Shown here piece after piece: positions 9,202 to 25,853 of a stretch of DNA of 64,000 bases. Source of the DNA: Myxococcota bacterium (GTDB lineage: Bacteria > Myxococcota_A > SURF-8 > G963663525); contig CAXXHC010000001.1 of the NCBI GenBank assembly GCA_963663525.2, forward strand, positions 1,030,572 through 1,094,571, written 5' to 3'. Under the pieces are notes generated by a model. That model did not search any database and had not been told where the DNA came from. It was given only the letters and a program-made list of their open reading frames with translations. Within the stretch, counting starts at the first letter, position 1. Each line of letters begins with the position of its first letter. The position numbers were made by a program, and so were the translations under genes.

Positions 9202-9217
9202 ATATTATTTCAAGAAG

Positions 9218-9811: not shown

Positions 9812-10069
9812 CGTGTTTCCTTACAACAACAGGGTTTCAAGTTCGAAGCGCCTCACTTTATAGCGCAATGGATCGAGAATCTCAAGCCCCTGAGCAAGAT
9901 CGGTGAAAGATAGGAAGCATCGTGGAAAAATGCAAGGTCGAGATTTTCTCAGTACCCTATTGGAATTTTTTACGAAAGCGTGAAATCCATAGTATTTTAA
10001 GTGAGTTATGGATGATCGCTACGTGGGCGTGCCGAGGTTTCTTCGCATTCTTTAAATTCTCTATAGTGA

Positions 10070-10227
10070 TCTTACCGTTCCAAATCAATCGCACTTTCTT
10101 CCCTCAGGGTGATTCAATTCTTGATTCTGCACGAGTCTAACTCGGTGAATCGAGGAATGGGTGCCCGGGTCTTCGATCCGGAACGGATCGATGGCCCGGG
10201 TTGCTTGTGTTTTCACGGCCATTCGCC
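10070..10227 (+). repeat. Degenerate copy (C0) of the small-ORF repeat family also present at 33291..33474 and 58985..59173
   Basis: 10146-10227 encodes ..RGMGARVFDPERIDGPGCLCFHGHSP, nearly identical to the 59173-side ORF (EGMGARVFDPERIDGPDSLCFHGHSP). Upstream, a 17-nt deletion relative to the 59-kb copy breaks the frame and there is no ATG. Contains the hairpin cgatccg-gaa-cggatcg. Confidence 0.55.
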
Positions 10228-11516
10228 TTCCGGCGAAAGACCGTGATTCCATAAGAGAGGGCTTTCCCCCGGCAGGGTCGATGGTATCATCGCCCTATTT
10301 TGATAACGGGATCGCTTGAGCGTCCCAAGCAGGAGGAAAGCCCATGATTTGTATTGGAATGGATGTGCATCAGAAGTCAACCACCATTTGCATTCAGGAC
10401 GATACGGGAAAGCAGGTTTTTCTCGGATCCTGTCCGACCACCTTTTCCGGATTCTCCGAAACGCTCCGGCCCTGGCTCGAAAAGCATCCCGGTGCGCCGG
10501 GGATGGAAGCCTGTTCGAAGGCGTATTCCACAAGCGGAATCGTCGCCGTATTGGGAGGATGCCCGCAGGTGTACCCGGCGGATGAAGTGGCGAAGAAAAC
10601 CCGCAGCCGGAAGAAAAAGACCGACACCCGCGACGCCCAGGATCTCTGTACCAACCTGCGCACGGGAGCCTTGGTTCGCGAGGTGGTTCTGCCGCCGGAG
10701 CCGATGCGCAAGCTTCGTTCGGTGCTCAAGGCGCGGGCGCTGAACGTGAAGATCCAGACGCAGGCGATCAACGCCGCCAAGGCGCTGCTGAGGGAGTACG
10801 GCCTGGATGGCGCCTCGGGAAGCATGAACACCCAAGCGGCCTGGAAAAAGCGGCTCGACGCCAAGATGCCCGAGATGGTGAGACAGCTGTTGGAAACGCA
10901 TTTCGCCAGCTTCCTTTTGGCCTCGAATCAGATCGAAGGGTTGACGACGATGGCCGAGGATCTTGGCCGTGAAAACCACGCGTTCGATGGGGTGCAGACG
11001 ATTCCGGGAGTGGGCCCGATCACGCGGCTGGCGCTTGCGGCGCATCTGTTCGACATCGGTCGTTTCCGTTCGGGAAAGCAGGTGACGGCCTACGTGGGTC
11101 TGTGCCCGTCGAGCTACGATTCGGGGGATCGCGAGCGCAAGGGACGCATCACGCGGGAGGGGCCGGGGTTGTTGCGGGCGTTGCTTGTGGAGTGCGCGCA
11201 GCACGCCCGGAAGCGAAAGAAGCCGCTGAACCCGTATTATCGCCGCTGGTTGGAGAAGCACGGTGCCAACAAGGCGAAGGTGGCGGTGGCGGCGAAACTG
11301 TGCCGGATCGTGCATGCTCTTTTGAAACGTTCCGAGGGCTTTTCGCCCGAGGCTTTGGGGGTGGTGCCGGACGGTTATGGGGGTTGGGAGTTTGCAGGCC
11401 GTGCGTCTGGTGGCGACGGACGGGGAGGCCTTCGGCGAAGGCTCCGGCCAAGGAGGTATCGACAAGCCACGAGATCAAGAGGTAGACGCAATGCGACAGA
11501 CGAAGATAGACGCTTA
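10228..11516 (+). mobile_element. IS110-family element; both boundaries uncertain and the 3' end is disrupted by an IS5-type insertion
   Basis: The transposase ORF is read into the inverted repeat of the next IS (last residues LESIPVG come from gagtctatccc...). The left limit is set only where similarity to the 59-kb C copy ends. IS110 elements lack terminal inverted repeats, so the ends cannot be fixed by eye. Confidence 0.4.
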
Positions 11517-11537
11517 GAGTCTATCCCAGTAGGGTGA
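10344..11537 (+). CDS. IS110-family (DEDD) transposase; C-terminus replaced by read-through into the neighbouring IS
   Basis: N-terminal MICIGMDVHQKST (DEDD_Tnp_IS110-like) and C-terminal domain IPGVGPITRLALAAHLFDIGRFRSGKQVTAYVGLCPSSYDSGDRERKGRITREG. AGGAGGA RBS. Confidence 0.9.
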   Translation: MICIGMDVHQKSTTICIQDDTGKQVFLGSCPTTFSGFSETLRPWLEKHPGAPGMEACSKAYSTSGIVAVLGGCPQVYPADEVAKKTRSRKKKTDTRDAQDLCTNLRTGALVREVVLPPEPMRKLRSVLKARALNVKIQTQAINAAKALLREYGLDGASGSMNTQAAWKKRLDAKMPEMVRQLLETHFASFLLASNQIEGLTTMAEDLGRENHAFDGVQTIPGVGPITRLALAAHLFDIGRFRSGKQVTAYVGLCPSSYDSGDRERKGRITREGPGLLRALLVECAQHARKRKKPLNPYYRRWLEKHGANKAKVAVAAKLCRIVHALLKRSEGFSPEALGVVPDGYGGWEFAGRASGGDGRGGLRRRLRPRRYRQATRSRGRRNATDEDRRLESIPVG

Positions 11538-12419
11538 ATTGTGCTATAGTCCTGTGAATATAGTATATTTACAGGAGATAAATATGGGATTGGCAACCCA
11601 AGATGATGGATGGAGAATCCCGGACGAATTGTGGGAAAAGATGGAGCCGCTCTTGCCTGCGCGAAAACCTCATCCCTTGGGTTGCCATAACCCGCCGGTT
11701 CCGCCGCGCCACGCGATGAACGCCATTCTATTCGTTTTGCGCACCGGCTGTCAGTGGAACGCGCTTAACGCGACGGGCATCTGCTCGTCCAGTGCGGCGC
11801 ACCGCTGGTTTATGGAGTGGACCAAGGCCGGGGTGTTCGAGGCGTTTTGGCGACAGGGCCTTTTGGAGTACGACAAGCTCAAGGGTGTCGACTGGGTTTG
11901 GTGTTCGATGGACGGCGCGATGACCAAAGCTCCGTTGGGCGGGGAAAAAAACGGGCCGAAACCCTACCGACCGCGGCAAAAGCGGCGTCAAGCGTAGCCT
12001 GCTGGTGGAAGCCGAGGGGATTCCGCTGTCCGTGGCGGTGGACGGGGCGAACCGGCATGACATGAAACTGGTGAAGGCGACTTTGGAAGGCATCGAGATC
12101 AAACGTCCCAAGCCGACGAAACGCAAGCCGCAAGGCTTGTGCCTGGACAAAGGGTACGACTACGATGAGGTGAGAGACTTGGTGGAGGAATTCAAGTTCA
12201 CGGCGCACGTTCGTTCGCGGGGCGAGGAGGCAAAGGCGATCAAGCAGGAAGCCGGTTTCAAGGCTCGTCGCTGGGTGGTGGAACGCACGCATAGTTGGAT
12301 GAACCGTTTCCGGAGAATACTAATCCGCTGGGAGAAACGCGCCGATTGCTCTCTAGCCATGCTACATTTCGCCCTCGGAATTATTACTTGGCGCGCTTCC
12401 GGCCTACTGGGATAGACTC
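11517..12419 (+). mobile_element. IS5-family (IS427/IS1031-like) element, copy 1, 903 bp
   Basis: Left inverted repeat gagtctatcccagtagg, right inverted repeat cctactgggatagactc. Direct 3-bp TSD TTA (11514-16 and 12420-22). Confidence 0.9.
11584..12415 (+). CDS. IS5-type transposase, two overlapping frames (orfA 11584..11997; orfB to 12415, +1 frame) joined at an A7 run
   Basis: orfA: MGLATQDDGWRIPDELWEKMEPLLP...GCQWNAL (DUF4096-like HTH). The orfB frame carries the DDE part (..AVDGANRHDMKL..LDKGYD..ERTHSWMNRFRRILIRWEK). The gggGAAAAAAAcggg run is conserved in all three copies. Confidence 0.85.
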
Positions 12420-12422
12420 TTA

Positions 12423-13724
12423 GGCTGGACAAAGACGTGGACATGGGGCGAGCTTCGAGTTGTAGGGACTTGAAGCGAAAAAGGAGCCACCATGTCCACG
12501 AGCTTATTGTATCATGGGTTCGGTCTGAGAGGATACCGATATACGAATGCGATCTATGAAAAGGGATGTGTCACGTTCGAAATCGAACCTCTCCGTCTGC
12601 GTTGTCCCTGTTGCCATTATCGCGATGTCATCCGACGCGGGAACCACCGGAGAGTCTGGCAGAGCGTTCCCATCGGCGATCATCCCGTTTTCTTCGCCAT
12701 GGAATGTCCCCGCATCGAGTGCCGTGCCTGTGGGGCGCTGCAGCAAATCAAACTCGGCTTTGCCGATCCGTATGTCGGCTACACTCGTGCCTTTGCCCGG
12801 TATGTGCTTGGCCTGTGCCGCTGCATGACGATGCAGGATGCGGCCCGGCATCTGAGCGTGGGCTGGGGAGTGGTCAAACAAATCGTCAAACGGGATCTTC
12901 AAAAGCGTTTTGCCAAGCCTGGACTCAAAGACACCAAGCGACTCGCCATCGACGAAATCGCCGTGAAAAAGGGGCACAAATATTTGACCGTGGTGCTGGA
13001 TCTGGACACGGGAGCCGTCGTTTTCGTCGGCAACGGCAAAGGTGCGGATGCCTTGCGGCCTTTCTGGAAGCGGCTGAAGCGTTCGAAGGCAACCATTCGT
13101 GCCGTGGCCTGCGACTTGTCGCCTGCCTACACCGCCGCCGTAATGGGGCATCTTCCCCGTGCGAAACTCGTCTTCGATCGTTTCCACGTCGTGAAGCTGA
13201 TGAACGACAAGCTTTCCAAACTGCGACGGGACTTGCAACGGGAGGCGGACACCTTGGGCAAAAAACTGTTGAAAGGAACCCGCTGGTTGTTGTTGAAGAA
13301 TCCGGAGAATCTGGATGACGCCAGACACGAGAGATCCCGTTTGGAGGAGGTTTTGAAATTCAACCGTCCCCTTGCCGAAGCTTACTGGATGAAAGAACAG
13401 TTGCGCCAGTTTTGGAACCAGCCGAGTCGAAAGGCGGCTCAAGGCTTCTTGGAACGCTGGTGTGATTGGGCTTGGGATTCGGGAATCAAAGTGTTGATTC
13501 AGATGGCAACAACGCTGGCAACGCACAAGACGGGTCTGCTCAACTGGTACAGCGAACCGATTTCAACGGGTCCGTTGGAAGGAGTCAACAACAAAATCAA
13601 AACCATGAAACGCCAGGCGTATGGCTACCGTGACAGGGAGTTCTTCAAACTCAAAATCATGGCTTTACACGAAACCAAGTTCAAACTCGTTGGGTAGAAA
13701 AAGGATGCAGATTCTTCATGAACC
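12423..13724 (+). mobile_element. ISL3-family element type 1, copy 1 (1302 bp)
   Basis: 1302 bp shared with the inverted copy 17713..19014; identity spot-checked at both ends and the 401-aa ORFs are identical. No 8-bp TSD: flanks are gactctta and acaaatgt. Confidence 0.8.
12492..13697 (+). CDS. ISL3-family transposase (401 aa)
   Basis: N-terminal zinc-finger-like CPCCHYRDVIRRG...CRACG. DDE_Tnp_ISL3 hallmarks (LAIDEIAVKKGHKYLTVV.D...., DRFHVVKLMN, GPLEGVNNKIKTMKRQAYGYRD). AAGGAG RBS. Confidence 0.9.
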   Translation: MSTSLLYHGFGLRGYRYTNAIYEKGCVTFEIEPLRLRCPCCHYRDVIRRGNHRRVWQSVPIGDHPVFFAMECPRIECRACGALQQIKLGFADPYVGYTRAFARYVLGLCRCMTMQDAARHLSVGWGVVKQIVKRDLQKRFAKPGLKDTKRLAIDEIAVKKGHKYLTVVLDLDTGAVVFVGNGKGADALRPFWKRLKRSKATIRAVACDLSPAYTAAVMGHLPRAKLVFDRFHVVKLMNDKLSKLRRDLQREADTLGKKLLKGTRWLLLKNPENLDDARHERSRLEEVLKFNRPLAEAYWMKEQLRQFWNQPSRKAAQGFLERWCDWAWDSGIKVLIQMATTLATHKTGLLNWYSEPISTGPLEGVNNKIKTMKRQAYGYRDREFFKLKIMALHETKFKLVG

Positions 13725-13821
13725 ACAAATGTCAAATCGGCGTCGACTGGCGTTTCACAACCGAAGATGCTCGTATCAAACTCAAATCTCTATACCCCGC
13801 TTTTCTATCCGAATGATCCAC
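13725..13821 (+). mobile_element. 3'-terminal remnant (97 bp) of an IS630-type element, truncated by ISL3 copy 1
   Basis: Matches the reverse complement of 27335-27431 (..CQIGVDWRFTTEDARIKLKSLYPAFLSE* then ccgaatgatccac + TA). It starts exactly at the ISL3 right end. Confidence 0.8.
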
Positions 13822-14008
13822 TAGTGCTTTGCTGAGAGTTTAACCTGGGAATTGGCTAACAGTACATGTGCTTTGCAAAAGCTTGGATAATATGATAAAT
13901 GGAGCTTATTGACAAAGTTAACCAATACGAACAAATTGCAGATCATTTTTATAGCCTTCTTATTCACAAGTACTTGCCGTTATTTCTCTCGCGGAAGGGA
14001 GTGTACAG

Positions 14009-17000
14009 ATGAATCGCGTTGCATTATTCATGACAGGTATTGTTTTGTTTGTATGCCTCGCTTGCAATTCAGGCGATGACTCTGGAAACCAAGACAGGAA
14101 TGATTCCGATAACGAATCGGGAATCACGGATGGAGATAATGATGATGCCGTAAACGGAGATACTGATCTTCCACCAGGCGTTGTACAATTGAATGGGTCT
14201 GTGGAAAAAGGCCCGTTCGTTTTAGGCTCCAGCATCACGATTTCGCCTGTAGATCCGGATGGAAATCCAACAGGACAGCAATTTACGACCCAGACCTTCA
14301 ATGACATGGGGGAATTCAGTGTCAATTTCGAGGCCAGCGGTTTCGTTTCCCTCGAAGGAACCGGATTCTACTACAACGAGGTGACAGGTGATTTGTCCGG
14401 TGCAAATCTAACGTTGCGAGCATTCTATGAAATCGTCAATGATGGCGTTCAAAACGCTCACTTAAATCTCTTGACCCACTTGACCTACAACCGTGTCAAA
14501 AATCTGGTTCAGATGGGAACTCCGATCGCCGATGCCATCGAGCAGGCGGAGGGTGAACTTGTATCGGCTTTACCCATCGGTTCCGAGAATTTCACCCTGG
14601 ACAATCCCGCCATCGAGCTGACCTTGCAAGGTGGCGATACCTTGCAAAACGCCTATTTGTTCGCGGTTTCTTCCGTATTGTCCCATGCGGCACGACTGAG
14701 AAGCCCGGCATCGCCGGATGCGGCATTGCAGGAATTGATAAACGGCATTTCCGCAGATTTGGCAGTCGACGGGGTGATTAGTCAGACCACGGTACAAACC
14801 CTGGTAGAAGCTCAGACACTTCCTATGGAACTCGATGGAAATTCTTCCGGACAATATTTGATCCCGGCGACGGTCATGGCGGACCTTGAAGCACGTTTCG
14901 AAGAGCTGGGTTCAACGGCAGAGATTCCGAATCTGAATCGAGTTCTGGATTCTGATTTCGATTCGGTCCCCAATGACGATGACAATTGTTGGTGGATCGC
15001 AAACACGAATCAGACCGACGACAACGGCAATCAAATCGGCGATGCCTGTGACATTGTTTTCAAAGACTCCAATACCGGTCTTTCGTGGCAAAATATCAGT
15101 ACGTACCATATGGATACGTTTTACACATTCGACGGGGAGTGGGAGGATGCCGTAAACTACTGCGAGAATCTCGATTTTGGTGGATTCGATGACTGGCGTA
15201 TGCCTTCGATCGATGAACTGCGCTCCCTCGTGGCCGGATGTCCCAACAAGCAGTCCGATGGGATTTGCGGACTGCATAACAATTGTGCGTTGAACGATGC
15301 CGCGTGCATCAAAGACTGCAATGCCTGTGAAGAAACGGAAACACCTTACTGGAAAGAGGGGGTATTAGGAACTCCTATTGTGTGGAGCAAGCAGATTTCC
15401 CCCCATCGCGGATCAAGTGTGAATTACTGGTGGTTTGATTTCGATATCGCTAAATTCCAAGATGGTCCAATCGCATTGGAATCGGATTCCCCGAATATGT
15501 TCGTGCGTTGTGTCCGTGGTTATTCGGTCCACCAAGAATTTGTTTGCAATGACGGTGTGGATGACGACGGAGACGGCAAGAAGGACTGTGAGGATTCCGA
15601 TTGCTTCGCCATACCAGAGGACATTGGCTTATGCGGTAATATGTTCGATTTGACGGGACTCAACTCAGCGGAATTTTCTCAGTGTCGGGAATGGATTGAT
15701 TGCCCCGTTATCAGCTATCCGTGCGGTGAATGTCTTGGTGTATGGATCTATGAGAACTGCAACGAGGTGTGCGAAGAAGGTCACGGTGATTCGGCAGCGT
15801 GCCGTGAATGTATGCTGGGATCTTTCGACACCTGCCTGGGTTCTTTTGTTTGCGATATTGAGACAATTTGTATGGATGGTGTGGACAACGATTCCGATTC
15901 ATTAACGGATATGCAAGACCCAGACTGCGAGATTCTGACAGATGGCTTGCCGGATGGCGATGTAGACGGCGATTTCGACGGGGACGAGGATGCAGATGAG
16001 GAAGGAAATCTCCCCACGGTTTCACCTGTCGTCGAAGGAAATTCTGCCACGTTCTTTTACGTTTCCACCGAGACAGTGCCGAACAGAATCAAAGTCGTGG
16101 GTAGTTTTCTGCATAGCCCCTGGAATCCTTCCATGGGGATTGTAATGACCCAGATCGCTGCCAATGTCTGGACCGCCACGGCAGACGATCTCGGCGTAGG
16201 AGAACATCACTACAAGTTCTGGTATCCCGAAAACACATGGCTGGCCGATCCTTTGAATCCCAACGAAGACGGTTCGCAAGATCACAATTCAGTATTCTGG
16301 ATTACCGAAGGCTGCGAGAGCGAATGTTCGGATGTTTTAGGTGATTATTGTTTCGATACGGCCCTTTTAGGACAAGGCAACCATGAGATTTGCGATATCT
16401 TCTTTTCGTTTTCCAACTGGACATGGACTATCGACAACCCGGATTACGACGACTGCTCTTTCGACATCCTGACATCGTCGGAAAACGATTCGGCTCCACC
16501 GGAAAAACGGGCGGAAATGCGTTTCTGTTCCTTCGATAACATCTCGATCGACCTCGAAGATCCTGCATGGATTTTAACGGACGACGACCAAGGCAACCTT
16601 ATTTTGAGTCAACCCAATTATTCGGGGCAAGTCATTTGCAGCGCCAGGCTCACGAAAGAAGCCTGTCATGACGTTCCTGTCGATGGAGATATCGACGAAG
16701 TGGACCAGATGGACTCGTTCGATGAGGAGCCGGAATCCAATGAAGAAGACATCGAGCCGGATGGAAATTCGGAAACTGAAGCAGAAGCTGATGAGGTTCA
16801 CTGTACCTGGGATTGCAGCCAGTTCGACCGCTTGTTCTGTCCGGTTTCCTTCGATGGTACAGGTTGCGAAGCACTCCAACGACACTTTTTGTTGATAGAA
16901 CCCGATCCAGAGAATCCCTGTGGATTTAAAGTGTATATGACTATGGATGAAGGAATCACCAAACGATGGCTGATTGATGTTCCCGATTGTGTGGTATCAG

Positions 17001-17137
17001 GCGTTGAACTTCCAGGTTATGCCGAAGAAAATTGCACTTTTACCTACGGTTCTATGCCAATCAATGGAATCGACGTCCAATGTGGCGAGGAAGAACTCGC
17101 TTGCTCGGTTCGAATGGAACCGGAAGCTTGTCATTAA
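14009..17137 (+). CDS. Large secreted lipoprotein (1042 aa) with a TSP3-like Ca-binding repeat, a DUF1566-like domain and a CBM48/E-set-like domain
   Basis: Lipobox LFVCLAC-NSGDD. DSDFDSVPNDDDNCWWIANTNQTDDNGNQIGDACD (thrombospondin-type-3-like). GEWEDAVNYCENLDFGGFDDWRMPSIDELRSL (DUF1566-like). SATFFYVS...IKVVGSF...W...HHYKFWY (AMPK-beta/CBM48-like). Visibly AT-richer than the flanks. Confidence 0.75.
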   Translation: MNRVALFMTGIVLFVCLACNSGDDSGNQDRNDSDNESGITDGDNDDAVNGDTDLPPGVVQLNGSVEKGPFVLGSSITISPVDPDGNPTGQQFTTQTFNDMGEFSVNFEASGFVSLEGTGFYYNEVTGDLSGANLTLRAFYEIVNDGVQNAHLNLLTHLTYNRVKNLVQMGTPIADAIEQAEGELVSALPIGSENFTLDNPAIELTLQGGDTLQNAYLFAVSSVLSHAARLRSPASPDAALQELINGISADLAVDGVISQTTVQTLVEAQTLPMELDGNSSGQYLIPATVMADLEARFEELGSTAEIPNLNRVLDSDFDSVPNDDDNCWWIANTNQTDDNGNQIGDACDIVFKDSNTGLSWQNISTYHMDTFYTFDGEWEDAVNYCENLDFGGFDDWRMPSIDELRSLVAGCPNKQSDGICGLHNNCALNDAACIKDCNACEETETPYWKEGVLGTPIVWSKQISPHRGSSVNYWWFDFDIAKFQDGPIALESDSPNMFVRCVRGYSVHQEFVCNDGVDDDGDGKKDCEDSDCFAIPEDIGLCGNMFDLTGLNSAEFSQCREWIDCPVISYPCGECLGVWIYENCNEVCEEGHGDSAACRECMLGSFDTCLGSFVCDIETICMDGVDNDSDSLTDMQDPDCEILTDGLPDGDVDGDFDGDEDADEEGNLPTVSPVVEGNSATFFYVSTETVPNRIKVVGSFLHSPWNPSMGIVMTQIAANVWTATADDLGVGEHHYKFWYPENTWLADPLNPNEDGSQDHNSVFWITEGCESECSDVLGDYCFDTALLGQGNHEICDIFFSFSNWTWTIDNPDYDDCSFDILTSSENDSAPPEKRAEMRFCSFDNISIDLEDPAWILTDDDQGNLILSQPNYSGQVICSARLTKEACHDVPVDGDIDEVDQMDSFDEEPESNEEDIEPDGNSETEAEADEVHCTWDCSQFDRLFCPVSFDGTGCEALQRHFLLIEPDPENPCGFKVYMTMDEGITKRWLIDVPDCVVSGVELPGYAEENCTFTYGSMPINGIDVQCGEEELACSVRMEPEACH

Positions 17138-17204
17138 CGATTTCCGTGGGGTAATAACGATACGTCACGTCTATTGGTAACCGATTAGTATCGTCCCCCT
17201 TGTG

Positions 17205-17540
17205 TCATTCCACAATCTCGATTTCCGTGGGCACCTCGGCGTGTTGTTCGTTGCTGTCATAAGCTCGTAGCCAAATGCGGTGGGTGCCGACGGGAAAAAC
17301 GCTTTTCTTCAAGGTCGCACCGGTACCGTAGCTTGTCGTACAGTCTTCGTCCCGTGCCGGGACAGTCAACGCCATCGTCCGGCTGCGACTGGCCGGAACG
17401 TTTTGGTTCAGCTCGACGAAATCAACTTCCAGTGCTACCGTGTCGAGCACGATCGACAGCGAATACACCGGCGACTCGAAAACCGACCTGATGGGTAGTA
17501 GAGGGAGACCCCTTTTCAAGACCGAAACGAAAATCTCCAT
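17205..17540 (-). CDS. Possible small Ig/HYR-like domain protein, or the 3' remnant of a gene cut by ISL3 copy 2
   Basis: The track ORF 17205..17816 begins inside the ISL3 end, so its N-terminus is spurious. The C-terminal part ..ALTVPARDEDCTTSYGTGATLKKSVFPVGTHRIWLRAYDSNEQHAEVPTEIEIVE resembles HYR/Ig-like domains. There is an internal ATG at 17540 with a weak RBS. Confidence 0.3.
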   Translation of the reverse strand: MEIFVSVLKRGLPLLPIRSVFESPVYSLSIVLDTVALEVDFVELNQNVPASRSRTMALTVPARDEDCTTSYGTGATLKKSVFPVGTHRIWLRAYDSNEQHAEVPTEIEIVE

Positions 17541-17712
17541 AGCTCTCAGCGTATACGAGGAACCGGTTCGTATCTTACCTCGGAAAACGTTTGCCGATTT
17601 GTTCTGCCAATAGCCGTGTAAAGAAGAAGGCTGAAACCTTCTTCCGCCGCAGGAAGGTGGCGGCTGGTAGGATTGGTGATGGGAAAATGGGGTGGGAATC
17701 GGATTCATTTCA

Positions 17713-19014
17713 GGTTCATGAAGAATCTGCATCCTTTTTCTACCCAACGAGTTTGAACTTGGTTTCGTGTAAAGCCATGATTTTGAGTTTGAAGAACTCC
17801 CTGTCACGGTAGCCATATGCCTGGCGTTTCATGGTTTTGATTTTGTTGTTGACTCCTTCCAACGGACCCGTTGAAATCGGTTCGCTGTACCAGTTGAGCA
17901 GACCCGTCTTGTGCGTTGCCAGCGTTGTTGCCATCTGAATCAACACTTTGATTCCCGAATCCCAAGCCCAATCACACCAGCGTTCCAAGAAGCCTTGAGC
18001 CGCCTTTCGACTCGGCTGGTTCCAAAACTGGCGCAACTGTTCTTTCATCCAGTAAGCTTCGGCAAGGGGACGGTTGAATTTCAAAACCTCCTCCAAACGG
18101 GATCTCTCGTGTCTGGCGTCATCCAGATTCTCCGGATTCTTCAACAACAACCAGCGGGTTCCTTTCAACAGTTTTTTGCCCAAGGTGTCCGCCTCCCGTT
18201 GCAAGTCCCGTCGCAGTTTGGAAAGCTTGTCGTTCATCAGCTTCACGACGTGGAAACGATCGAAGACGAGTTTCGCACGGGGAAGATGCCCCATTACGGC
18301 GGCGGTGTAGGCAGGCGACAAGTCGCAGGCCACGGCACGAATGGTTGCCTTCGAACGCTTCAGCCGCTTCCAGAAAGGCCGCAAGGCATCCGCACCTTTG
18401 CCGTTGCCGACGAAAACGACGGCTCCCGTGTCCAGATCCAGCACCACGGTCAAATATTTGTGCCCCTTTTTCACGGCGATTTCGTCGATGGCGAGTCGCT
18501 TGGTGTCTTTGAGTCCAGGCTTGGCAAAACGCTTTTGAAGATCCCGTTTGACGATTTGTTTGACCACTCCCCAGCCCACGCTCAGATGCCGGGCCGCATC
18601 CTGCATCGTCATGCAGCGGCACAGGCCAAGCACATACCGGGCAAAGGCACGAGTGTAGCCGACATACGGATCGGCAAAGCCGAGTTTGATTTGCTGCAGC
18701 GCCCCACAGGCACGGCACTCGATGCGGGGACATTCCATGGCGAAGAAAACGGGATGATCGCCGATGGGAACGCTCTGCCAGACTCTCCGGTGGTTCCCGC
18801 GTCGGATGACATCGCGATAATGGCAACAGGGACAACGCAGACGGAGAGGTTCGATTTCGAACGTGACACATCCCTTTTCATAGATCGCATTCGTATATCG
18901 GTATCCTCTCAGACCGAACCCATGATACAATAAGCTCGTGGACATGGTGGCTCCTTTTTCGCTTCAAGTCCCTACAACTCGAAGCTCGCCCCATGTCCAC
19001 GTCTTTGTCCAGCC
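17713..19014 (-). mobile_element. ISL3-family element type 1, copy 2 (inverted relative to copy 1)
   Basis: Same ends and same 401-aa ORF as 12423..13724. Its left-end junction to an IS5-type copy (gtccagcc-TAA-gagtc) is the reverse complement of the junction at 12415-12430. Confidence 0.8.
17740..18945 (-). CDS. ISL3-family transposase (identical 401 aa)
   Basis: Track protein identical to 12492..13697. Confidence 0.9.
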   Translation of the reverse strand: MSTSLLYHGFGLRGYRYTNAIYEKGCVTFEIEPLRLRCPCCHYRDVIRRGNHRRVWQSVPIGDHPVFFAMECPRIECRACGALQQIKLGFADPYVGYTRAFARYVLGLCRCMTMQDAARHLSVGWGVVKQIVKRDLQKRFAKPGLKDTKRLAIDEIAVKKGHKYLTVVLDLDTGAVVFVGNGKGADALRPFWKRLKRSKATIRAVACDLSPAYTAAVMGHLPRAKLVFDRFHVVKLMNDKLSKLRRDLQREADTLGKKLLKGTRWLLLKNPENLDDARHERSRLEEVLKFNRPLAEAYWMKEQLRQFWNQPSRKAAQGFLERWCDWAWDSGIKVLIQMATTLATHKTGLLNWYSEPISTGPLEGVNNKIKTMKRQAYGYRDREFFKLKIMALHETKFKLVG

Positions 19015-19017
19015 TAA

Positions 19018-19920
19018 GAGTCTATCCCAGTAGGCCGGAAGCGCGCCAAGTAATAATTCCGAGGGCGAAATGTAGCATGGCTAGATAGCAATCGGCGCGT
19101 TTCTCCCAGCGGATTAGTATTCGCCGGAAACGGTTCAACCAACTGTGCGTCCGCTCCACCACCCAACGTCGCGCCTTGAAACCAGCCTCATCCTTGATCG
19201 CCTTCGCCTCCTCGCCCCGCGAACGAATGTGAGCCGTGAACCCGAATGCCTTCACCAATTCCCGAACCTCGTCGAAGTCGTAGCCCTTGTCCAAGCACAA
19301 CCCTTGCGGTTTCTTTCGCGTAGGCCTCGGACGTTTCGTTTCGATGCTTTCCAGCGTCGCCTTCACCAGCTTCATGTCATGCCGGTTCGCCCCGTCCACG
19401 GCCACGGCCAACGGGATTCCCTTCGCCTCCACCAACAGACTTCGCTTGACCCCTTGTTTTCCGCGGTCGGTAGGGTTTCGGCCCGTTTTTTTCCCCACCC
19501 AGCGGAGCTTTGGTCATCGCGCCGTCCATCGAACACCAAACCCAGTCGACACCCTTGAGCTTGTCGTACTCCAAAAGGCCCTGTCGCCAAAACGCCTCGA
19601 ACACCCCGGCCTTGGTCCACTCCATAAACCAGCGGTGCGCCGCACTGGACGAGCAGATGCCCGTCGCGTTAAGCGCGTTCCACTGACAGCCGGTGCGCAA
19701 AACGAATAGAATGGCGTTCATCGCGTGGCGCGGCGGAACCGGCGGGTTATGGCAACCCAAGGGATGAGGTTTTCGCGCAGGCAAGAGCGGCTCCATCTTT
19801 TCCCACAATTCGTCCGGGATTCTCCATCCATCATCTTGGGTTGCCAATCCCATATTTATCTCCTGTAAATATACTATATTCACAGGACTATAGCACAATT
19901 CACCCTACTGGGATAGGCTC
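19018..19920 (-). mobile_element. IS5-family (IS427/IS1031-like) element, copy 2, mosaic
   Basis: Ends gagtctatcccagtagg / cctactgggataggctc. Flanks on the + strand are TAA (19015-17) and TTA (19921-23), which is not a direct repeat. Confidence 0.85.
19022..19853 (-). CDS. IS5-type transposase (orfA/orfB, +1 frame at the A7 run)
   Basis: orfA is identical to copy 1. Most of orfB is identical to copy 3 (..ESIETKRPRPTRKKPQGLCLDKGYDFDEVRELVKAFGFTAH..), but the last ~30 aa are copy-1-like. Confidence 0.85.
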
Positions 19921-20018
19921 TTAATGGCAAATCAGTGCTCATGTATCCGTGGAGGCCATTTAGAAGCGACCGGCGGAGAGTTTCCCCTCCGCCGGTCTAG
20001 TCCCGACCTCCTTTCCGG

Positions 20019-20288
20019 CTACTGGTTGACCGCCACGCCGCCGTCGACCTTGGGGGTCAGCGCGAGGATGGCGCCATCGTCGGGCCGCTCGTGCAGCTGG
20101 CAGTGGACGCCGTTCAGCGTGAGCGCGTAGCCCTGGCTGTCGAAGCCCGCCGAGGTGAGGGCGTCGGCGCAGGTGGAACCCGCCGGGACGGTAACCTGGC
20201 GCTGCCTGCCGATCGAGACGACGGTGACGCGGATGCCGTGGTTGCGGTTCTGGGACTGCTGGTCGTGGTTCTGATTCTGATCGTTCAT
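20019..20288 (-). CDS. ThiS/MoaD-like beta-grasp (ubiquitin-like) small protein with an N/Q/H-rich leader and a Gly-Gly 5 residues before the stop
   Basis: Preferred start is the ATG at 20288 (GGAGGA RBS 7 nt upstream); the track ORF extends to 20333. MNDQNQNHDQQSQNRNHG-IRVTVVSIGRQRQVTVPAGSTCADALTSAGFDSQGYALTLNGVHCQLHERPDDGAILALTPKVDGG-VAVNQ. The pattern parallels ThiS (xVNGxxxxVxxGxTvxdLLxxlg.....vAvxvNGxxv......l.DGDxvxixxxvxGG). Confidence 0.6.
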   Translation of the reverse strand: MNDQNQNHDQQSQNRNHGIRVTVVSIGRQRQVTVPAGSTCADALTSAGFDSQGYALTLNGVHCQLHERPDDGAILALTPKVDGGVAVNQ

Positions 20289-20427
20289 GGGATTCCTCCA
20301 ATGGTTGGGATGATGGGCGCGCTGCCCGGACACAAAGACGCCGCCTCGCAGGCGGCTGTGGTGATGATGGAGTGATGTGCGTACAGACTGGTATTGTCTG
20401 TACGTACGTACAAAGGGAGTAGGCCAA

Positions 20428-21201
20428 TTACCTGGCGTTGTCTACGGTGTCGGCATCGCTGTTGTCGTCGTCGCCGTTGGGCTGGATGACGCCGCGCAGG
20501 TTCTCGAAGATGGCCTTGAACTGACGGATCTCCTGCTCGTTGCAGTCTTCTTCTTTGTCGAGTTGCAACACCGCATACGTGCCGGTCGGCATGGTGAGCG
20601 AGAGCCGGGTCTTGCAGGTGAACAGCGGCAGGTCGGCGCGCTGTCCATCAGGGAGTTGGAGTTTGCCGAGAAAGTAGCGTGCAAGATAGCGCTGGACCGG
20701 CTTGCGGCTCGTGGCTTTTGCGCGAATGATGAACGGGTTGCCGTCGTCCGTGTCGAGTCCGAGCATCGTGTATACGATGTCGCAGTCGGGAATCGCTTCA
20801 TGGCCATTGCCACGACCCCAGAGACGATGAGGGCAGGTGGCGCAGTCGACAACCTCACCATCGGCGCGGATGCCTTCCAGTCCGTCATCCGAACGACAAT
20901 GTTCGGTCATGCCGGAGTTCTCCGAGTACGTCGCCCATCGGCGGGATTTCTTGATGTGAAGCAGGACACAGTGGATCTCGTTTTTGGCTTCTCCGGTCAG
21001 CGTGTTGACAAACACGTCCTTCGGAGCCCAGGAGCCGTCCGGCAGGCGGCGTTTTGTGTTGTAGACAAAGGCGGGGAGCGGCCGATCTTCATTGTCCAGA
21101 TGGGACAGGGCCTGAAGACCGGCCAGCTCATGGATGAGGGATTGGGGGATGGGAAGTTGATGGTGGGTATCGGTCGCCGTGCTGACCACGTTTGTTGACA
21201 T
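20428..21201 (-). CDS. Hypothetical 257-aa protein with a Cys/His cluster; function unknown
   Basis: GGAGG RBS. Cys/His cluster: HCRSDDG..VDCATCPHRLWG..IPDCD. Acidic tail. Co-directional and 139 bp upstream of the beta-grasp gene. I recognise no family. Confidence 0.6.
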   Translation of the reverse strand: MSTNVVSTATDTHHQLPIPQSLIHELAGLQALSHLDNEDRPLPAFVYNTKRRLPDGSWAPKDVFVNTLTGEAKNEIHCVLLHIKKSRRWATYSENSGMTEHCRSDDGLEGIRADGEVVDCATCPHRLWGRGNGHEAIPDCDIVYTMLGLDTDDGNPFIIRAKATSRKPVQRYLARYFLGKLQLPDGQRADLPLFTCKTRLSLTMPTGTYAVLQLDKEEDCNEQEIRQFKAIFENLRGVIQPNGDDDNSDADTVDNAR

Positions 21202-21275
21202 GGGAAACCTCCGGTTTGGGTGGTGATTGTGTGCGCGTACGCGAAACGATGGGCACGGGCCTTGATGGCAGCTAC

Positions 21276-22874
21276 CCTGAATAATTCACAATGTCGGGAA
21301 TAACGAAAGGGCGTTTTCTGTTTTATCGAGTGAGATCAAGCACTTGTAGTGATAAAACAGAGGAAACGCCCATGACGCAGTGTAGCGGAAAACTTGAGCT
21401 TGGCGCAATCGGAAAACGCACAATATCGGTCGATTTCAATGGTGGAGCCATCGCTTCCGACGGAGGAATCCTGCTGTTGCGGGAGGTGGAACGCCGGGTT
21501 GGCCTGATCCATCGCCTGTCCGGTTGTCTTGAAGATCGCCGTGACCCGAACCGCATTCGCCACACGGTGGAGGATCTCCTGCGCCAGCGGGTGTTCCAGA
21601 TCTGCTGCGGCTACGAAGACGCCAACGACGCCGACAGGCTCCGCTCGGATCCTGCCTTGAAAACCGCTTGTGACCGCGAACTCGATCCCGACGATGACCT
21701 GGGAAGCCAGCCCACGCTGACTCGCCTGGAAAACGCGGCGGACAACGACACGATCCAGCGTCTGTTGCAATCCCTGGTGGATCACTGGCTGGAGCATCGC
21801 CAACGACCCGCCGATGGCAGGATCATCCTCGACGTGGATTCCACCGACGACGAGACCCACGGGCAACAGGAGTTTGCCGAATTCCACGGCTATTATCGGC
21901 ATTACTGCTATCAGCCGGTGCTGATTCACGATGGCGAAACCGGCGATCTGATCCTGCCTTTTCTGCGTCCCGGGCGGGTTTCGGCCAGGCTGGGCGCGGA
22001 CGGGCTGTTGATCTACCTGGCCGACCGCGTTCGTGAGAAATGGCCCGGCGTGCAGGTGATCGTGCGCGGCGACTCCGGTTATTGCGGCGAGGATTTCTAC
22101 CTCGAACTCGAAACGCATGGCATCGACTACGTGCTTGGCATCGCGAAAAACGCCAACCTCAACAAGCTTGCGGAGACGGCGATGAAGGCGGCGCGGCTGT
22201 TTTCGGCCATGACCGGCCGCAAGACGACGATCTACGCCGAAGGCCGGTACCGGGCCGGATCGTGGACGACCTCCCGGCGGGTGATTGCCAAGGCCGAACG
22301 CCTGAAAGACAAGGACAATCAACGGTTTGTGGTGACGACGCTCGACGAGCCGCCGGCGTGGATCTACCGGGAGTTCTACGTCAAGCGCGGCGAGGCGAGC
22401 GAAAACCGGATCAAGGATCTCAAGCTGGATTGCTCCGGAGACCGCTTGAGCTGCCATCGTTTCATCACCAACTTCTTCCGGCTGATTCTGCATATGGCAG
22501 CCTACGCCCTGATGCACGAGTTACGCAAAGCGTGCAAAAGCACCAAGTTCGGCACGGCGAGAATCGAAACGCTGAGATTGAGGCTGCTCAAGATCGGCGT
22601 TCGAATCCGACAGACGACGCGCAGAATCTGGTTCCATCTGTCCGAATCCACCCCGGAGAAAGAACTCTGGACGGAGATCATGAGAAAACTTGTGGCGGCG
22701 TAACGAAAACCCCGGTCGGCCCGATCCGGGCGAAAAGGAGGCGCGATGACAACCGATAGATCCAAGGGGGACGAAACCAGAGGATAGGTTTGTCCGATCC
22801 TCGAAAATCGTTTCAAATTCGATCGGACATCTCTCGCCCAAAAGTCCTCGACGAAACGTCATGAATTTTCCAGG
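21276..22874 (+). mobile_element. IS1380-like (IS4-superfamily) element, about 1.6 kb
   Basis: Imperfect terminal inverted repeats cctgaataattcacaatgtcgg / reverse complement of cgaaacgtcatgaattttccagg (about 15 of 21 match). Possible TSD (G)CTA on both sides; ends are accurate to +/- 2 bp. Confidence 0.6.
21372..22703 (+). CDS. IS1380-family-like DDE transposase
   Basis: ASDGGILLLREVERRVGL, GSQPTLTRLEN, ILDVDSTDDETHGQQEFAEFHGYYRHYCYQPVL and IVRGDSGYCGEDF match the motif layout I associate with IS1380/DDE_Tnp_1-type enzymes. Preferred start is the ATG at 21372. Confidence 0.8.
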   Translation: MTQCSGKLELGAIGKRTISVDFNGGAIASDGGILLLREVERRVGLIHRLSGCLEDRRDPNRIRHTVEDLLRQRVFQICCGYEDANDADRLRSDPALKTACDRELDPDDDLGSQPTLTRLENAADNDTIQRLLQSLVDHWLEHRQRPADGRIILDVDSTDDETHGQQEFAEFHGYYRHYCYQPVLIHDGETGDLILPFLRPGRVSARLGADGLLIYLADRVREKWPGVQVIVRGDSGYCGEDFYLELETHGIDYVLGIAKNANLNKLAETAMKAARLFSAMTGRKTTIYAEGRYRAGSWTTSRRVIAKAERLKDKDNQRFVVTTLDEPPAWIYREFYVKRGEASENRIKDLKLDCSGDRLSCHRFITNFFRLILHMAAYALMHELRKACKSTKFGTARIETLRLRLLKIGVRIRQTTRRIWFHLSESTPEKELWTEIMRKLVAA

Positions 22875-23214
22875 CTAAAGTGCCCTCGTTGGTGAGATGA
22901 AGGACTGGATGACCTGTAGATCAACCAGTTCTCTCTATTGACTTATGTCCAGGAACTGTGCGGATTTACGCTTGTTCGCCGTGTACGTACGGCAAGAAAA
23001 GCCGGGCCAAAAAAAAACCTGGCCAGTTATACTGGGACTCCAGTAAGTCTTTTTCCGATCGAGATTCTATTTTGTTATAGCGCTAAGTCAGGGCGAAGAT
23101 GATGGTGTGGTTCGGAAGTAAAATTTCGAGATTTCTCAATCCCAGTCATTTGATCGAGTTGCGGATTGAGTACAAGCGGCCGATGATGGCGGTGCAGACC
23201 TATCTTCACCATGC

Positions 23215-24056: not shown

Positions 24057-24923
24057 GATAGTGTCGTCACGAGAAGTCGAATATTCTAGACATGATCATT
24101 GTCTTTTTGATATATTTCTTTTGAATAGAATATATCAAAGGGAACTGCTATGGAAGCCGCCTATCATCGTCATGACATTTCCGATCATGCATGGGAACTC
24201 TTGGAACCTCATTTACCGGGACGCAAAGGTTCTTGGGGTGGTGTTGCCGAAGACAATCGACGCTTCATCAATGCTGTTTTCTGGATTCTTCGCACCGGTG
24301 CTCCGTGGCGTGATCTGCCGCCGGATTATGGCGACTGGAACAACACCAACCGTCGCTTTTGCCGGTGGCGCGATAAAGGAATCTGGGAGGGATTGCTCGA
24401 AATCCTCATCGACGATCCCGATTACGAATGGTTGATGATCGACGCCAGCCACGTCAAAGTTCACCCGCACGCGGCAGGAGCGAAAGGCGGCAACCAGGCG
24501 ATGGGCCGCACAAAAGGGGGCTCAACACTAAAATACACCTGGCCGTGGATGCGCATGGTAATCCGGTCCGAGCGATTGTTACGGAGGGTCCACGAGCAGA
24601 TTGCAAGGAGGCTTGCGCACTGATCGAAGGGATCGATGCCGAGTATCTGCTGGCCGATCGTGGCTACGATACGGACAAGATTATCGAAGAAGCCGAAAAT
24701 GCGGAGATGGAGGTGGTCATCCCGCCGAAGAAGAATCGGAAGGTCCAACGACCCTACGACAAAGAGCTTTACCGTGCGCGGCATCTGGTCGAAAATGCCT
24801 TTTTGAAGCTGAAACGCTGGAGGGGAATTGCTACGAGATACGCAAAAAATGCCGCATCTTTCCTCGCCGCCGTTCATATTCGATGCCTCTTTCTTTGGCT
24901 GGATATCTCGTGACGACACTATC
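24057..24923 (+). mobile_element. Second IS5-family (IS427-group-like) element, 867 bp
   Basis: Perfect 17-bp terminal inverted repeats gatagtgtcgtcacgag / ctcgtgacgacactatc. Flanked by TA on both sides (24055-56 and 24924-25). Confidence 0.85.
24150..24913 (+). CDS. IS5/IS427-type transposase, orfA (24150..) and orfB (-1 frame) overlapping at an AAAAGGGGG run
   Basis: orfA: HRHDISDHAWELLEPHLPGRKG..RRFINAVFWILRTGAPWRDLP. Fusing ..GRTKGG (frame 0) to LNTKIHLAVDAHGNP.. (-1 frame) recreates the usual GRSRGG-L.TKIH motif. DDE part: ADRGYD...ENAFLKLKRWRGIATRYAK. Confidence 0.85.
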
Positions 24924-24925
24924 TA

Positions 24926-25831
24926 GAGCCTATTTCAGTAGGCAGTGAGGTTGTGGTATAATTTTGTAAATATACTATATTTACAGGAGATCAGGATGGG
25001 CTTGGCAGTGAAGGACGATGGCTGGCGCATTTCGGACGAGTTGTGGGAAAAGATGGAGAAATCTCTTCCCGAACGCAAACCTCATCCATTGGGATGCCAC
25101 AATCCTCGCGTTCCCGACCGGGATGCGATGAACGGTATTCTGTTCGTGTTGCGGACGGGCTGTCAGTGGAATGCGCTGAATGCCACGAGGATCTGTTCGT
25201 GCAGTTCCAGCTATCGCCGATTCAGGGAATGGACCGAAGCCGGGGTGTTCGAAGAATTCTGGCGGCAAGGCTTGTTGGAGTACGACAAGCTTGAAGGCAT
25301 CGACTGGTTGTGGCTTTCTCTGGATGGCGCGATGACGAAAGCTCCGCTGGGTGGGGAAAAAAACGGGCCGAAACCCTACCGACCGCGGAAAACAAGGGGT
25401 CAAGCGAAGTCTGTTGGTGGAGGCGAAGGGAATCCCGTTGGCCGTGGCCGTGGACGGGGCGAACCGGCATGACATGAAGCTGGTGAAGGCGACGCTGGAA
25501 AGCATCGAAACGAAACGTCCGAGGCCTACGCGAAAGAAACCGCAAGGGTTGTGCTTGGACAAGGGCTACGACTTCGACGAGGTTCGGGAATTGGTGAAGG
25601 CATTCGGGTTCACGGCTCACATTCGTTCGCGGGGCGAGGAGGCGAAGGCGATCAAGGATGAGGCTGGTTTCAAGGCGCGACGTTGGGTGGTGGAGCGGAC
25701 GCACAGTTGGTTGAACCGTTTCCGGCGAATTCTCATCCGCTGGGAAAAGCGAACGGACACCTATATCGCCATGTTGCATTTCGCCTTGGGGATTGTCACA
25801 TGGAGAGCAACCGGCCTACTGAAATAGGCTC
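24926..25831 (+). mobile_element. IS5-family (IS427/IS1031-like) element, copy 3, 906 bp
   Basis: Ends gagcctatttcagtagg / cctactgaaataggctc. Right flank is TTA. The left flank becomes TTA once the adjacent IS (24057..24923) and one of its TA duplications are removed. Confidence 0.85.
24996..25827 (+). CDS. IS5-type transposase (orfA/orfB, +1 frame at the A7 run)
   Basis: MGLAVKDDGWRISDELWEKMEKSLPERKPHPLG... in the orfA frame, then GKKTGRNPTDRGKQGVKRSLLVEAKGIPLAVAVDGANRHD... The same A7 run (ggggAAAAAAAcggg) is present. Confidence 0.85.
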
Positions 25832-25853
25832 TTAAATGAAGAGACAGGATAGC

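Follow-up and report, generated by a model that had tools for sequence, protein, structure and literature searches.

The 64-kb window considered here, a stretch of 64,000 nucleotides of the Myxococcota contig CAXXHC010000001.1 in whose numbering all positions are given unless another locus is named, carries on its minus strand two co-directional genes that lie between insertion sequences (IS). The upstream gene (20428..21201) encodes a phage-type protein of 257 amino acids with a set of four cysteines and an acidic C-terminal tail. The downstream gene (20019..20288) encodes the 89-aa precursor of a ubiquitin-like protein (Ubl), which consists of an N/Q/H leader, a predicted beta-grasp core, the residue pair G83-G84 and the tail VAVNQ. 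Both open reading frames (ORFs), including the leader of the shorter one, had already been pointed out in a first-pass annotation of this DNA and were found as described there. They are intact, and each is preceded by a start site of the form GGAGG-N5-6-ATG with a Shine-Dalgarno (SD) sequence. For the 257-aa protein 18 close homologues were collected, the best with 95% identity, and for the Ubl 35. Compared with the copy in the related locus L003, which is 89% identical (dS 0.36-0.48), the 257-aa gene shows a ratio of non-synonymous to synonymous substitution rates (dN/dS) of 0.116 and the Ubl gene one of 0.10; purifying selection has acted on both. Between 10.3 and 25.8 kb, IS110, IS5, ISL3 and IS1380 elements lie close together, and GC-rich DNA yields many long spurious ORFs on both strands, which might speak for two chance or decayed, non-coding frames in an IS graveyard. 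The probability of this explanation is negligible, as it is already refuted by the conserved motifs of the 18 and 35 homologues, by dN/dS values of about 0.1, by the SD sites before both genes and by the confident beta-grasp model of the Ubl.

Searches of the two window proteins against Pfam, NCBIfam, PADLOC and PHROGs returned just a ThiS model (E 0.032) and PHROG 23155, a family without assigned function. Rfam and tRNA scans gave no match near the Ubl locus; the sole Rfam/ARAGORN match in the window is a tRNA-Lys (CTT) at 63434-63509.

Alignment of the 35 Ubl homologues revealed a well-conserved core of 65 residues behind a low-complexity N/Q/H leader of variable length. G84 is invariant (35/35), G83 is present in 34 of the 35, and the Gly-Gly pair is followed by one to five variable residues. 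The first-pass annotation had likened the ending GG plus VAVNQ to the layout of Ubl precursors, and this proved to be a property of the family: with one to five variable residues beyond the Gly-Gly, the Ubl is to be regarded as a precursor. A search of the PDB with the profile of this alignment matched Pyrococcus PF1061/SAMP2 from end to end (E 0.006-0.03), whereby the Gly-Gly falls on the terminal Gly-Gly of PF1061/SAMP2. The match to the NCBIfam ThiS model NF006231 (E 0.032) is weak and, with 14.6 bits, does not reach the cut-off of 80. The AlphaFold2 (AF2) model shows a beta-beta-alpha-beta-beta arrangement with strands at residues 18-25, 28-35, 54-58 and 73-79, a helix at 40-47 and a predicted local distance difference test score (pLDDT) of 84-91 in the core. 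The top Foldseek matches of this model in the PDB comprise the ThiS-like Mth1743, MoaD, SUMO, Caldiarchaeum ubiquitin (6fj7), SAMP1, TtuB and the bacterial Ubl 8tyx. As modelled, the 89-aa protein is a beta-grasp Ubl with a ThiS/SAMP2-like core, in line with the ThiS/MoaD-like residue pattern that had been noticed earlier.

Upstream of the 257-aa gene, its native 5' leader of 73 nt (21202..21274, minus strand) aligns with the corresponding sequences of L001, L002 and L003 and lies on the gene side of an IS1380-family element (21275..22873, plus strand; transposase 21291-22703; Pfam DDE_Tnp_1_4, E 5e-145) with a GCTA/CTA target-site duplication of 3-4 bp. Beyond this element the homology resumes in a conserved non-coding upstream region that has been displaced by the IS1380 (22874..23123, minus strand). 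According to blastn, L003 9924-11283 corresponds to window 21274-19921 and L003 9677-9927 to window 23123-22874 (86.5% identity for the latter); L001 and L002 also match the upstream region over 22874-22970. Since the uninterrupted target sequence is seen in L001-L003 and the GCTA/CTA duplication is present, the IS1380 has entered the conserved upstream region by simple insertion.

On the other side of the gene pair, collinearity with L003 (89% identity) extends down to 19921. The homology of L002 stops at 19966, and the last stretch of 45-47 nt (19921..19967, minus strand) that derives from the cassette described below is shared only with the L003 subtype. Consequently, the window copy belongs to this subtype and has lost the radical S-adenosylmethionine (radical-SAM), E2 and JAB genes and the rest. 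The edge at 19921 coincides with the right arm (17706..19921, minus strand) of a 2216-nt inverted repeat, 97% complementary, which is composed of an IS5-type element (ORFs 19022-19898; Pfam DUF4096 and DDE_Tnp_1) and an ISL3 element (17740-18945; DDE_Tnp_ISL3). The left arm (11516..13731, plus strand) abuts an IS110-family transposase gene (10344-11537), for which reason no cassette sequence resumes on the far side; tblastn and profile hidden Markov models (HMMs) found no E2-like, JAB or ThiF sequence there. The 3' end of the IS110-family gene is overrun by this arm. The junction at the 19921 edge runs from ...TTA into GAGCC..., and both outer flanks of the repeat are TTA. These flanks would fit an insertion of the IS5 plus ISL3 composite as one unit with the cassette continuing beyond it, but this was rejected because the far flank is IS110 and holds no cassette sequence. 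Of the fragment boundaries given in the first-pass annotation, the IS5-type and IS1380 flanks stand, the latter element being confirmed by Pfam and separated from the 257-aa start by the leader. The IS5 edge, however, is that of a much longer repeat arm, and the fragment does not end at the IS1380, as the upstream region of the cassette resumes behind it.

The original gene order can be read from relatives, i.e. homologue-carrying contigs (L numbers) that were searched with tblastn and with HMMs made for this analysis. In ten independent loci the Ubl gene is followed by an E2-like gene and a gene with a JAB motif, and in an eleventh (L010) the E2-like gene lies at the contig end. The order upstream region, 257-aa gene, Ubl gene, E2-like gene (~500 aa) and JAB gene (~270 aa) is found in L002, L003, L004/L008, L005, L009 and L013. 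L006 shows the order Ubl, E2-like, JAB, DUF2958, ThiF and only 71 codons of the 257-aa gene; DUF2958 and ThiF are located further downstream in L003, and L004/L008 carry a ThiF stub of 41 codons. The order Ubl, E2-like, JAB is also present in L015, L017 and the distant L019, of which L017 and L019 are without a 257-aa gene and L015 retains a fragment of it. The E2 identity is 62-63% for L015/L016 and L017/L018 and 27-31% for L019, whose Ubl comprises 70 aa and ends with GGSHQ. No Ubl accompanies the 257-aa homologues in L014 and in phages. As Ubl-E2-JAB persists where the 257-aa gene is absent or vestigial, these three genes constitute the core module. Its first two members may be set apart by other genes, namely a radical-SAM gene in L003 and ~8.7 kb of cargo in L010; in L019 they are separated by the gene (937-1422) of a 161-aa protein that carries a membrane segment at its N-terminus and a DnaJ (J) domain at its C-terminus. 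L001 is a second copy truncated at the same place as the window, and its Ubl gene is frameshifted.

The profiles of the cassette-family E2-like, JAB and ThiF proteins gave no match in the window, not even at E<=10 (the general Pfam ThiF, UQ_con and JAB models were not run on it), in agreement with the earlier statement that no E1, E2 or JAB partner is present. Likewise, the lack of a sulfur-carrier partner noted at that time extends to the relatives: thiamine or molybdopterin genes were found neither in the window region nor in the related loci, where the Ubl homologues adjoin E2-like and JAB genes and, in two loci, also ThiF.

Past the Ubl gene a GC-rich stem-loop of 13 bp with a T-rich tail (19968..19997, minus strand) begins ~22 nt behind the stop codon. 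It is kept in 12 of the 12 loci compared, with compensatory changes in four pairs and a consensus energy of -26.6 kcal/mol, and in the intact loci it parts the Ubl gene from the E2-like gene. From its structure and position it looks like an intra-operon terminator or attenuator. A second, terminator-like hairpin was detected by a consensus scan in the 139-nt spacer between the 257-aa and Ubl genes (20340..20356, minus strand). Furthermore, a strong Shine-Dalgarno-like stretch without a start codon behind it directly follows the Ubl stop (19998-20018, minus strand) and occupies the same place in L001-L006, L009 and L010, immediately before the conserved hairpin. In several loci this stretch is complementary to the whole 3' tail of 16S rRNA (AAGGAGGTGATCC); the window version is CCGGAAAGGAGGTCGGG. 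Ribosome pausing and a standby site are possibilities for its role.

In the ~500-aa protein of the core module an N-terminal region is followed by a predicted ubiquitin-conjugating (UBC) core and a Cys-rich C-terminal domain. The motif Y/F-HPH-x4-G-x-PCLGNIG...SYNPxxPY is invariant in the 14 members of the family, down to 27% identity, with a putative catalytic Cys seven residues past the HPN-type HPH motif. Comparison by hhalign with manually entered sequences of five classical E2s gave an alignment of 116 columns (Prob 95.5%, E 1.6e-8) that places residues 238-364 on UBC residues 2-121. Thereby HPH is paired with HPN, C325 with the catalytic Cys and SYNPxDPY (NPxDP) with PNPDDP. Judged by these motifs and the alignment, the ~500-aa protein is E2-like with a predicted UBC core. 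Its 14 clusters, retrieved from 5.8 billion proteins, stem nearly all from Myxococcota metagenome-assembled genomes, and a sequence-profile search of the PDB with the family gave no match. The C-terminal ~100 residues (e.g. residues 370-480 of the protein encoded at L003 12738-14264) contain 16 invariant Cys in CxxC and Cx4-9C spacing, as seen in the E2-like proteins of L002-L006 and P0204-P0217. This number of Cys would suffice for about four Zn sites, and the domain could be a RING/E3-like or a substrate-binding module.

The third protein of the module shows the pattern GEFSCFG...WAHSHADxxxFWSxED, which is invariant in five loci and also present in L015 and L019. Its invariant residues E21, H82, H84, S92 and D95 make up the E...HSH-x7-S-xx-D motif of JAMM peptidases. 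The best PDB match of the JAB profile is the Rpn11-like 6fjv/6fju, aligned on the motif (E 0.37-0.74), and hhalign against AfJAMM, Rpn11 and CSN5, again with manually entered reference sequences, gave a Prob of 61% and an E of 7.9e-5. The accessory proteins are more readily classified: the ThiF proteins of L003 and L006 match PF00899 with E 7e-14 and 52 bits (gathering score 28.1), and DUF2958 passes the Pfam threshold (E 2e-15). The ThiF-type E1 comprises 235 aa with one adenylation domain.

Concerning the surroundings of the cassette, L015 has a tyrosine integrase, a helix-turn-helix (HTH) repressor, a Phage_CP76-like gene, an AAA ATPase (AAA_15/23), RecT and a nuclease of the metallo-beta-lactamase (MBL) fold ahead of Ubl-E2-JAB. 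Elsewhere the neighbours include type I restriction-modification, SLFN/AlbA, AbiEii, Card1, NADase, CHAT and caspase-like peptidases and RtcR-CARF, and several cassette copies occur per genome, sample or contig. The integrase, repressor and RecT genes together with the defence-type neighbours indicate that the cassette lives on prophage-like elements and in settings that resemble defence islands.

With respect to the window, we conclude that 19921-21274 and 22874-23123 are very probably the 5' stub of a mobile, prophage-associated Ubl conjugation cassette of Myxococcota. The remnant of a mobile Ubl system that had been suspected earlier is thus borne out by the homology to the Ubl-E2-JAB loci and by the breakpoints at the IS elements. 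In the course of its decay, the IS5 plus ISL3 block would have replaced everything past the hairpin, and the IS1380 would have split off the upstream region. As the enzyme genes are lost, the Ubl precursor can be neither matured nor conjugated by proteins encoded in cis; the window copy is decaying and could act only with enzymes provided in trans by further copies of the cassette in its genome.

Several points weigh against this conclusion. The two window genes are intact and under purifying selection, so that the loss of function is deduced from the context. Pfam (including UQ_con), NCBIfam and PADLOC contain no match for the E2-like or the JAB protein, and these collections and PHROGs gave nothing significant for the Ubl, E2-like and JAB components of the cassette. 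The assignment as JAB depends on the motif and on weak profile scores (PDB E 0.37, hhalign Prob 61%) and is to be taken as a prediction. Finally, an E1 is encoded in cis in just 2 of ~11 loci (L003, L006). Many copies may be defective, a host MoeB/ThiF may activate the Ubl, or the activation may differ from the scheme outlined below.

The same components also have to be weighed with regard to a different chemistry, in which the Ubl would serve as a sulfur carrier like ThiS, MoaD, CysO or QbsE: JAB would trim the tail, ThiF would adenylate and thiocarboxylate the Gly-Gly end, and the sulfur would pass to a small molecule. Sulfur carriers trimmed by JAB peptidases are established (CysO/Mec+, QbsE/QbsD), and they count for this possibility, as do the nearest sequence matches of the Ubl (ThiS NF006231 and PF1061/SAMP2), the presence of ThiS-like, MoaD and TtuB proteins among its fold matches and the radical-SAM gene that follows the Ubl gene in the L003 subtype, the window copy's own. 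This gene is, however, limited to that one subtype. Every intact locus encodes an E2-like protein with the invariant HPH...C, which a sulfur relay does not need, whereas ThiG, MoaE, cysteine synthase, rhodanese or other sulfur-acceptor genes occur in none. Furthermore, most loci are without ThiF, and the context is that of a prophage or defence island. We therefore consider a sulfur carrier highly improbable, and protein conjugation is probably the chemistry of the intact system.

The 257-aa protein, for which no family had been recognized in the first-pass annotation, belongs to a phage family of 425 clusters (profile search of 1.84 billion representatives). It matches PHROG 23155 with E 3.6e-6, and of 64 relatives eight distant ones match Pfam Pam3_Gp34. 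In the 64-member sample, with 21-45% identity to the window protein, C102, S104, C123 and C140 are invariant and C120 is conserved in at least 90%; the Cys residues of the motifs that had been singled out earlier (HCRSDDG, CATCPH and IPDCD, all present in the protein) are thus conserved in the family. The four Cys are candidate metal ligands, of the kind expected in a Zn-containing phage SSB with an OB fold such as T4 gp32 or phiC31 gp3. An acidic stretch followed by a terminal F, W or Y, an ending known from bacterial single-stranded DNA (ssDNA)-binding protein (SSB) and T7 gp2.5, is found in ~33 of 63 relatives, ten of which end with ..PF and resemble the SSB tip. The tail of the window protein has seven D/E within the last 30 residues but ends with ..DNAR and has no aromatic tip. 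A sequence-profile search of the PDB with the family gave no match. With tblastn, nothing was found for the protein in the plasmid collection and one weak match in the phage collection; no phage record was matched by the distant family member P0072, and a viral-contig scan with alignment A1 gave no match.

The AF2 model of the 257-aa protein has a mean pLDDT of 60 and a beta-rich core, and 32 uncharacterized phage proteins of BFVD match it at E<1e-3. In the PDB, the best Foldseek match of this pLDDT-60 model is chain I of 9teh, a fusion of the phiC31 integrase with its recombination directionality factor (RDF) gp3, with E 0.011 and a template-modelling (TM) score of ~0.3. The next match is the SSB-like PrgE, and the oligonucleotide-binding (OB) folds of RPA and RMI follow lower at E>0.2. 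For the gp3/TG1 gp25 RDF family, function as a Zn-containing SSB with an OB fold has been demonstrated (PMC11795197). The family shares with the 257-aa protein the size of ~250 aa, the motif order HC..D, C.(.)CP, F.F.T.S and the adjacency to exonuclease or polymerase genes (VWB gp8-gp9 on the one hand, Tunturi_4 and L014 on the other), whereas no serine integrase is linked to the Ubl cassette. Homology of the two families was not accepted, since the profile-profile comparison is not significant (Prob 1.7-6.7%); it is unproven, and the link is a structural hint only.

The neighbourhoods of the 257-aa homologues agree with a role in DNA metabolism. An exonuclease gene lies upstream in phage Tunturi_4, a PDDEXK nuclease gene in L014, PolA in L008 and an AEP-DnaB-PolA fusion in L009; in L015 the position of the 257-aa gene, of which only a fragment remains, is held by RecT and the MBL-fold nuclease. 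The L009 fusion is a 1515-aa ORF (1238-5785) that joins an AEP-type primase (AEP-TOTE), a DnaB_C helicase, a PolA 3'-5' exonuclease and a PolA polymerase, and an IS481-type element separates it from the downstream cassette copy. On account of the near-invariant Cys, the SSB-like acidic tail and the replication and recombination modules, we lean towards the 257-aa protein being an ssDNA-binding, possibly Zn-containing, protein of the replication/recombination module of the element.

Earlier the 257-aa protein had been regarded as the partner of the Ubl. This does not hold in view of its absence from L017 and L019 and its vestiges in L015 and L006: it accompanies the Ubl module in some loci only and is no core or dedicated partner. 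The same loci bear on the question whether the 257-aa and Ubl genes make up a self-sufficient pair that still works in the window, either by a non-covalent action of the Ubl on the ssDNA-binding protein or with enzymes provided in trans by other copies. The intact ORFs, the SD sites and the dN/dS of ~0.1 would suit such a unit. In addition, a conserved hairpin parts the Ubl gene from the E2-like gene in every locus, so that the pair could be a separate transcription unit; the pair is kept where cargo has entered behind it (radical SAM in L003, ~8.7 kb in L010), and the co-occurrence of several copies in one sample or contig makes a supply in trans plausible. Nevertheless, the Ubl travels with the E2-like and JAB genes, while the 257-aa gene is absent in L017/L019, a fragment in L015 and reduced to 71 codons in L006, and L014 and phages have 257-aa homologues without Ubl. 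The IS1380 has moreover taken the conserved upstream region away from the pair, and in L001, truncated at the same place, the Ubl is frameshifted. A functional two-gene unit is hence unlikely, and the stub of a larger conjugation cassette remains our preferred reading of the window.

Several features of the surrounding DNA may be recorded here. The arms of the 2216-nt repeat bracket a segment of 3974 nt with the gene of a 1042-aa Lcl_C-domain lipoprotein (14009-17137, plus strand), which thus lies in an IS-bounded segment next to the stub; the whole inverted-repeat structure (11516-19921) looks composite-transposon-like or invertible. In independent loci the Ubl cassette is repeatedly followed at a short distance by surface proteins with Lcl_C and/or FGE-sulfatase domains (L002 14318-16243, L003 16486-17244, L006 ~9910-10161, L010 3674-10808 and, in the window, 14009-17137). 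In L003 an apparent diversity-generating retroelement is located at 16486-18600: the C-terminus of a 252-aa Lcl_C protein, ..SSSPVEDYGDVAWFVLFDNGGVDSDSVSSDYVVRCVR, has its counterpart in a template-like ORF rich in Asn, ..SSSPVEDNDNNAWNVNFNNGNVNNNNVNNNNNVRCVR, and further parts are a bAvd-like gene at 17360-17731 and, at 18008-18424, a truncated ORF that resembles a reverse transcriptase. The L015 element (2103-14739) lies beside infC-rpmI-rplT-IHF-MerR, contains a vestige of the 257-aa gene before the Ubl gene and, after the JAB gene, a NADase_transloc protein, a radical-SAM gene and a CHAT protease. Two further IS5-type copies, ~80-88% identical to the Ubl-adjacent one, are found at window 24150-25834. 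The 1990-aa ORF of the window (2666-8638) was also considered as a counterpart of the replicative megaprotein upstream in L009 or of the 2019-aa protein of L001; as only weak repeat similarity was seen, this was discarded.

For the intact cassette, with the order upstream region, 257-aa gene, pro-Ubl gene, hairpin, E2-like gene and JAMM/JAB gene, in some copies extended by DUF2958 and the 235-aa ThiF, the following course is proposed. The JAB peptidase would remove the one to five residues past the Gly-Gly. An E1, namely the ThiF in cis where present and otherwise presumably a host MoeB/ThiF, would adenylate the exposed glycine, and the Ubl would then move to the Cys of the E2-like protein and further to lysines of the targets, a step that JAB could reverse. 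The hairpin after the Ubl gene would keep the Ubl in excess over the enzymes. All of these steps, JAB trimming, E1 activation and E2 transfer, are modelled on Bil and type II CBASS (PMC11601596) and appear to be the most likely course.

As to the biological role, the leading candidates are anti-phage defence and control of the element's own replication. A role of the cassette in defence is possible, though we would not presume it. Function and anti-phage defence of bacterial Ubl conjugation (type II CBASS, Bil, Bub) have been shown only recently, and each new bacterial Ubl family has brought unexpected chemistry. A more far-reaching reading is offered tentatively. According to it, the intact relatives would be bacterial ubiquitination-like modules of a family not yet described, with the build Ubl, attenuator hairpin, E2 and JAMM and a classical-type E2 (HPN...Cys...PNPxxP) that bears a 16-Cys, possibly RING/E3-like domain. 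The modules would usually lack an E1 and depend on a host MoeB/ThiF, reside in the replication/recombination region of Myxococcota prophage-like elements, beside genes of ssDNA-binding or annealing proteins (257-aa protein or RecT), and mark these ssDNA-binding proteins or replication proteins of an invader, the window containing a decayed copy. In its active-site region the E2 of the cassette is unusually close to classical eukaryotic E2s, which bears on the origin of the eukaryotic cascade. Moreover, a mostly E1-less module beside ssDNA-binding and recombination genes raises the questions of who activates the Ubl and what gets marked. The window copy itself, as a truncated stub, is of lesser weight; it shows the erosion of such cassettes by IS elements and led to the intact loci.

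The Ubl-E2-JAB family is rare and apparently undescribed, and it belongs among the bacterial ubiquitination-like operons. In the literature on DUF2958 plus ThiF and on Myxococcota Ubl systems no description of a Ubl-E2-JAB cassette was found. Two known systems had been named in the first-pass annotation as possible parents of the fragment, PRTRC and Bil. PRTRC resembles the cassette in being mobile and in having a small ThiF-family protein (~240 aa), and the L003 ThiF has a sub-threshold match to TIGR03736 (E 1.7e-10). This match reaches 40.7 bits versus a cut-off of 144.75, none of the components is matched by a model of PRTRC A-F or ParB, and a ParB gene was not found; an assignment to PRTRC is therefore abandoned.

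The Bil (bacterial ISG15-like) system consists of the Ubl BilA, the E2 BilB, the JAB BilC and the E1 BilD (PMC11601596). Like Bil, the relatives lie on mobile DNA and encode the Ubl, the E2-like protein and JAB/JAMM in a gene each, their Ubl has a conserved C-terminal glycine and their neighbours are defence-island-like. The expected chemistry would also be the same, with maturation and deconjugation by JAB and a relay from E1 to E2. In contrast to Bil, the E1 of the cassette is a 235-aa single-domain ThiF that is missing in most loci, whereas BilD has a tandem IAD-AAD-CYS architecture. The E2-like protein of ~500 aa has an N-terminal region, the HPN-like HPH motif and a C-terminal domain with 16 Cys. 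A single ThiS/SAMP2-like beta-grasp makes up the Ubl, and the window contains the Ubl alone. PADLOC 2.0.0 found no match for the Ubl, E2-like and JAB proteins, although this release may not hold Bil models. The earlier proposal of a Bil-like system is not upheld in view of the single-domain E1, the different E2 architecture and the silence of PADLOC.

Closer in composition is operon type 6d of Iyer, Burroughs and Aravind (2006), which comprises a Ub-like protein, a JAB, an E1-like and an E2-like protein and an alpha-helical protein (PMC1779556). Both have one Ubl, one JAB, one E2-like and, in the case of the cassette sometimes, one E1-like gene on mobile DNA. However, no counterpart of the alpha-helical protein was identified in the cassette, and the E2s of type 6d are described as lacking the classical conserved histidine, while the HPH of the cassette is invariant, a comparison made by description only (PMC1779556).

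The operon of Caldiarchaeum subterraneum, finally, encodes a ubiquitin, an E1, an E2, a small RING E3 and an Rpn11-like JAMM protein (PMC5654768, PMC3082918). The cassette differs from it in being bacterial (Myxococcota) and located on prophage-like elements, and its Ubl is nearer to ThiS/SAMP2 than to ubiquitin, with an E1 that is small and usually absent. Nevertheless, the Caldiarchaeum Rpn11-like protein (6fjv/6fju) is the best PDB profile match of the JAB protein, its ubiquitin (6fj7) is among the top fold matches of the Ubl, and an E2 with the classical HPN-type motif is present in both. The Cys-rich domain fused to the E2 of the cassette could here stand in for the separate RING protein of the archaeon.

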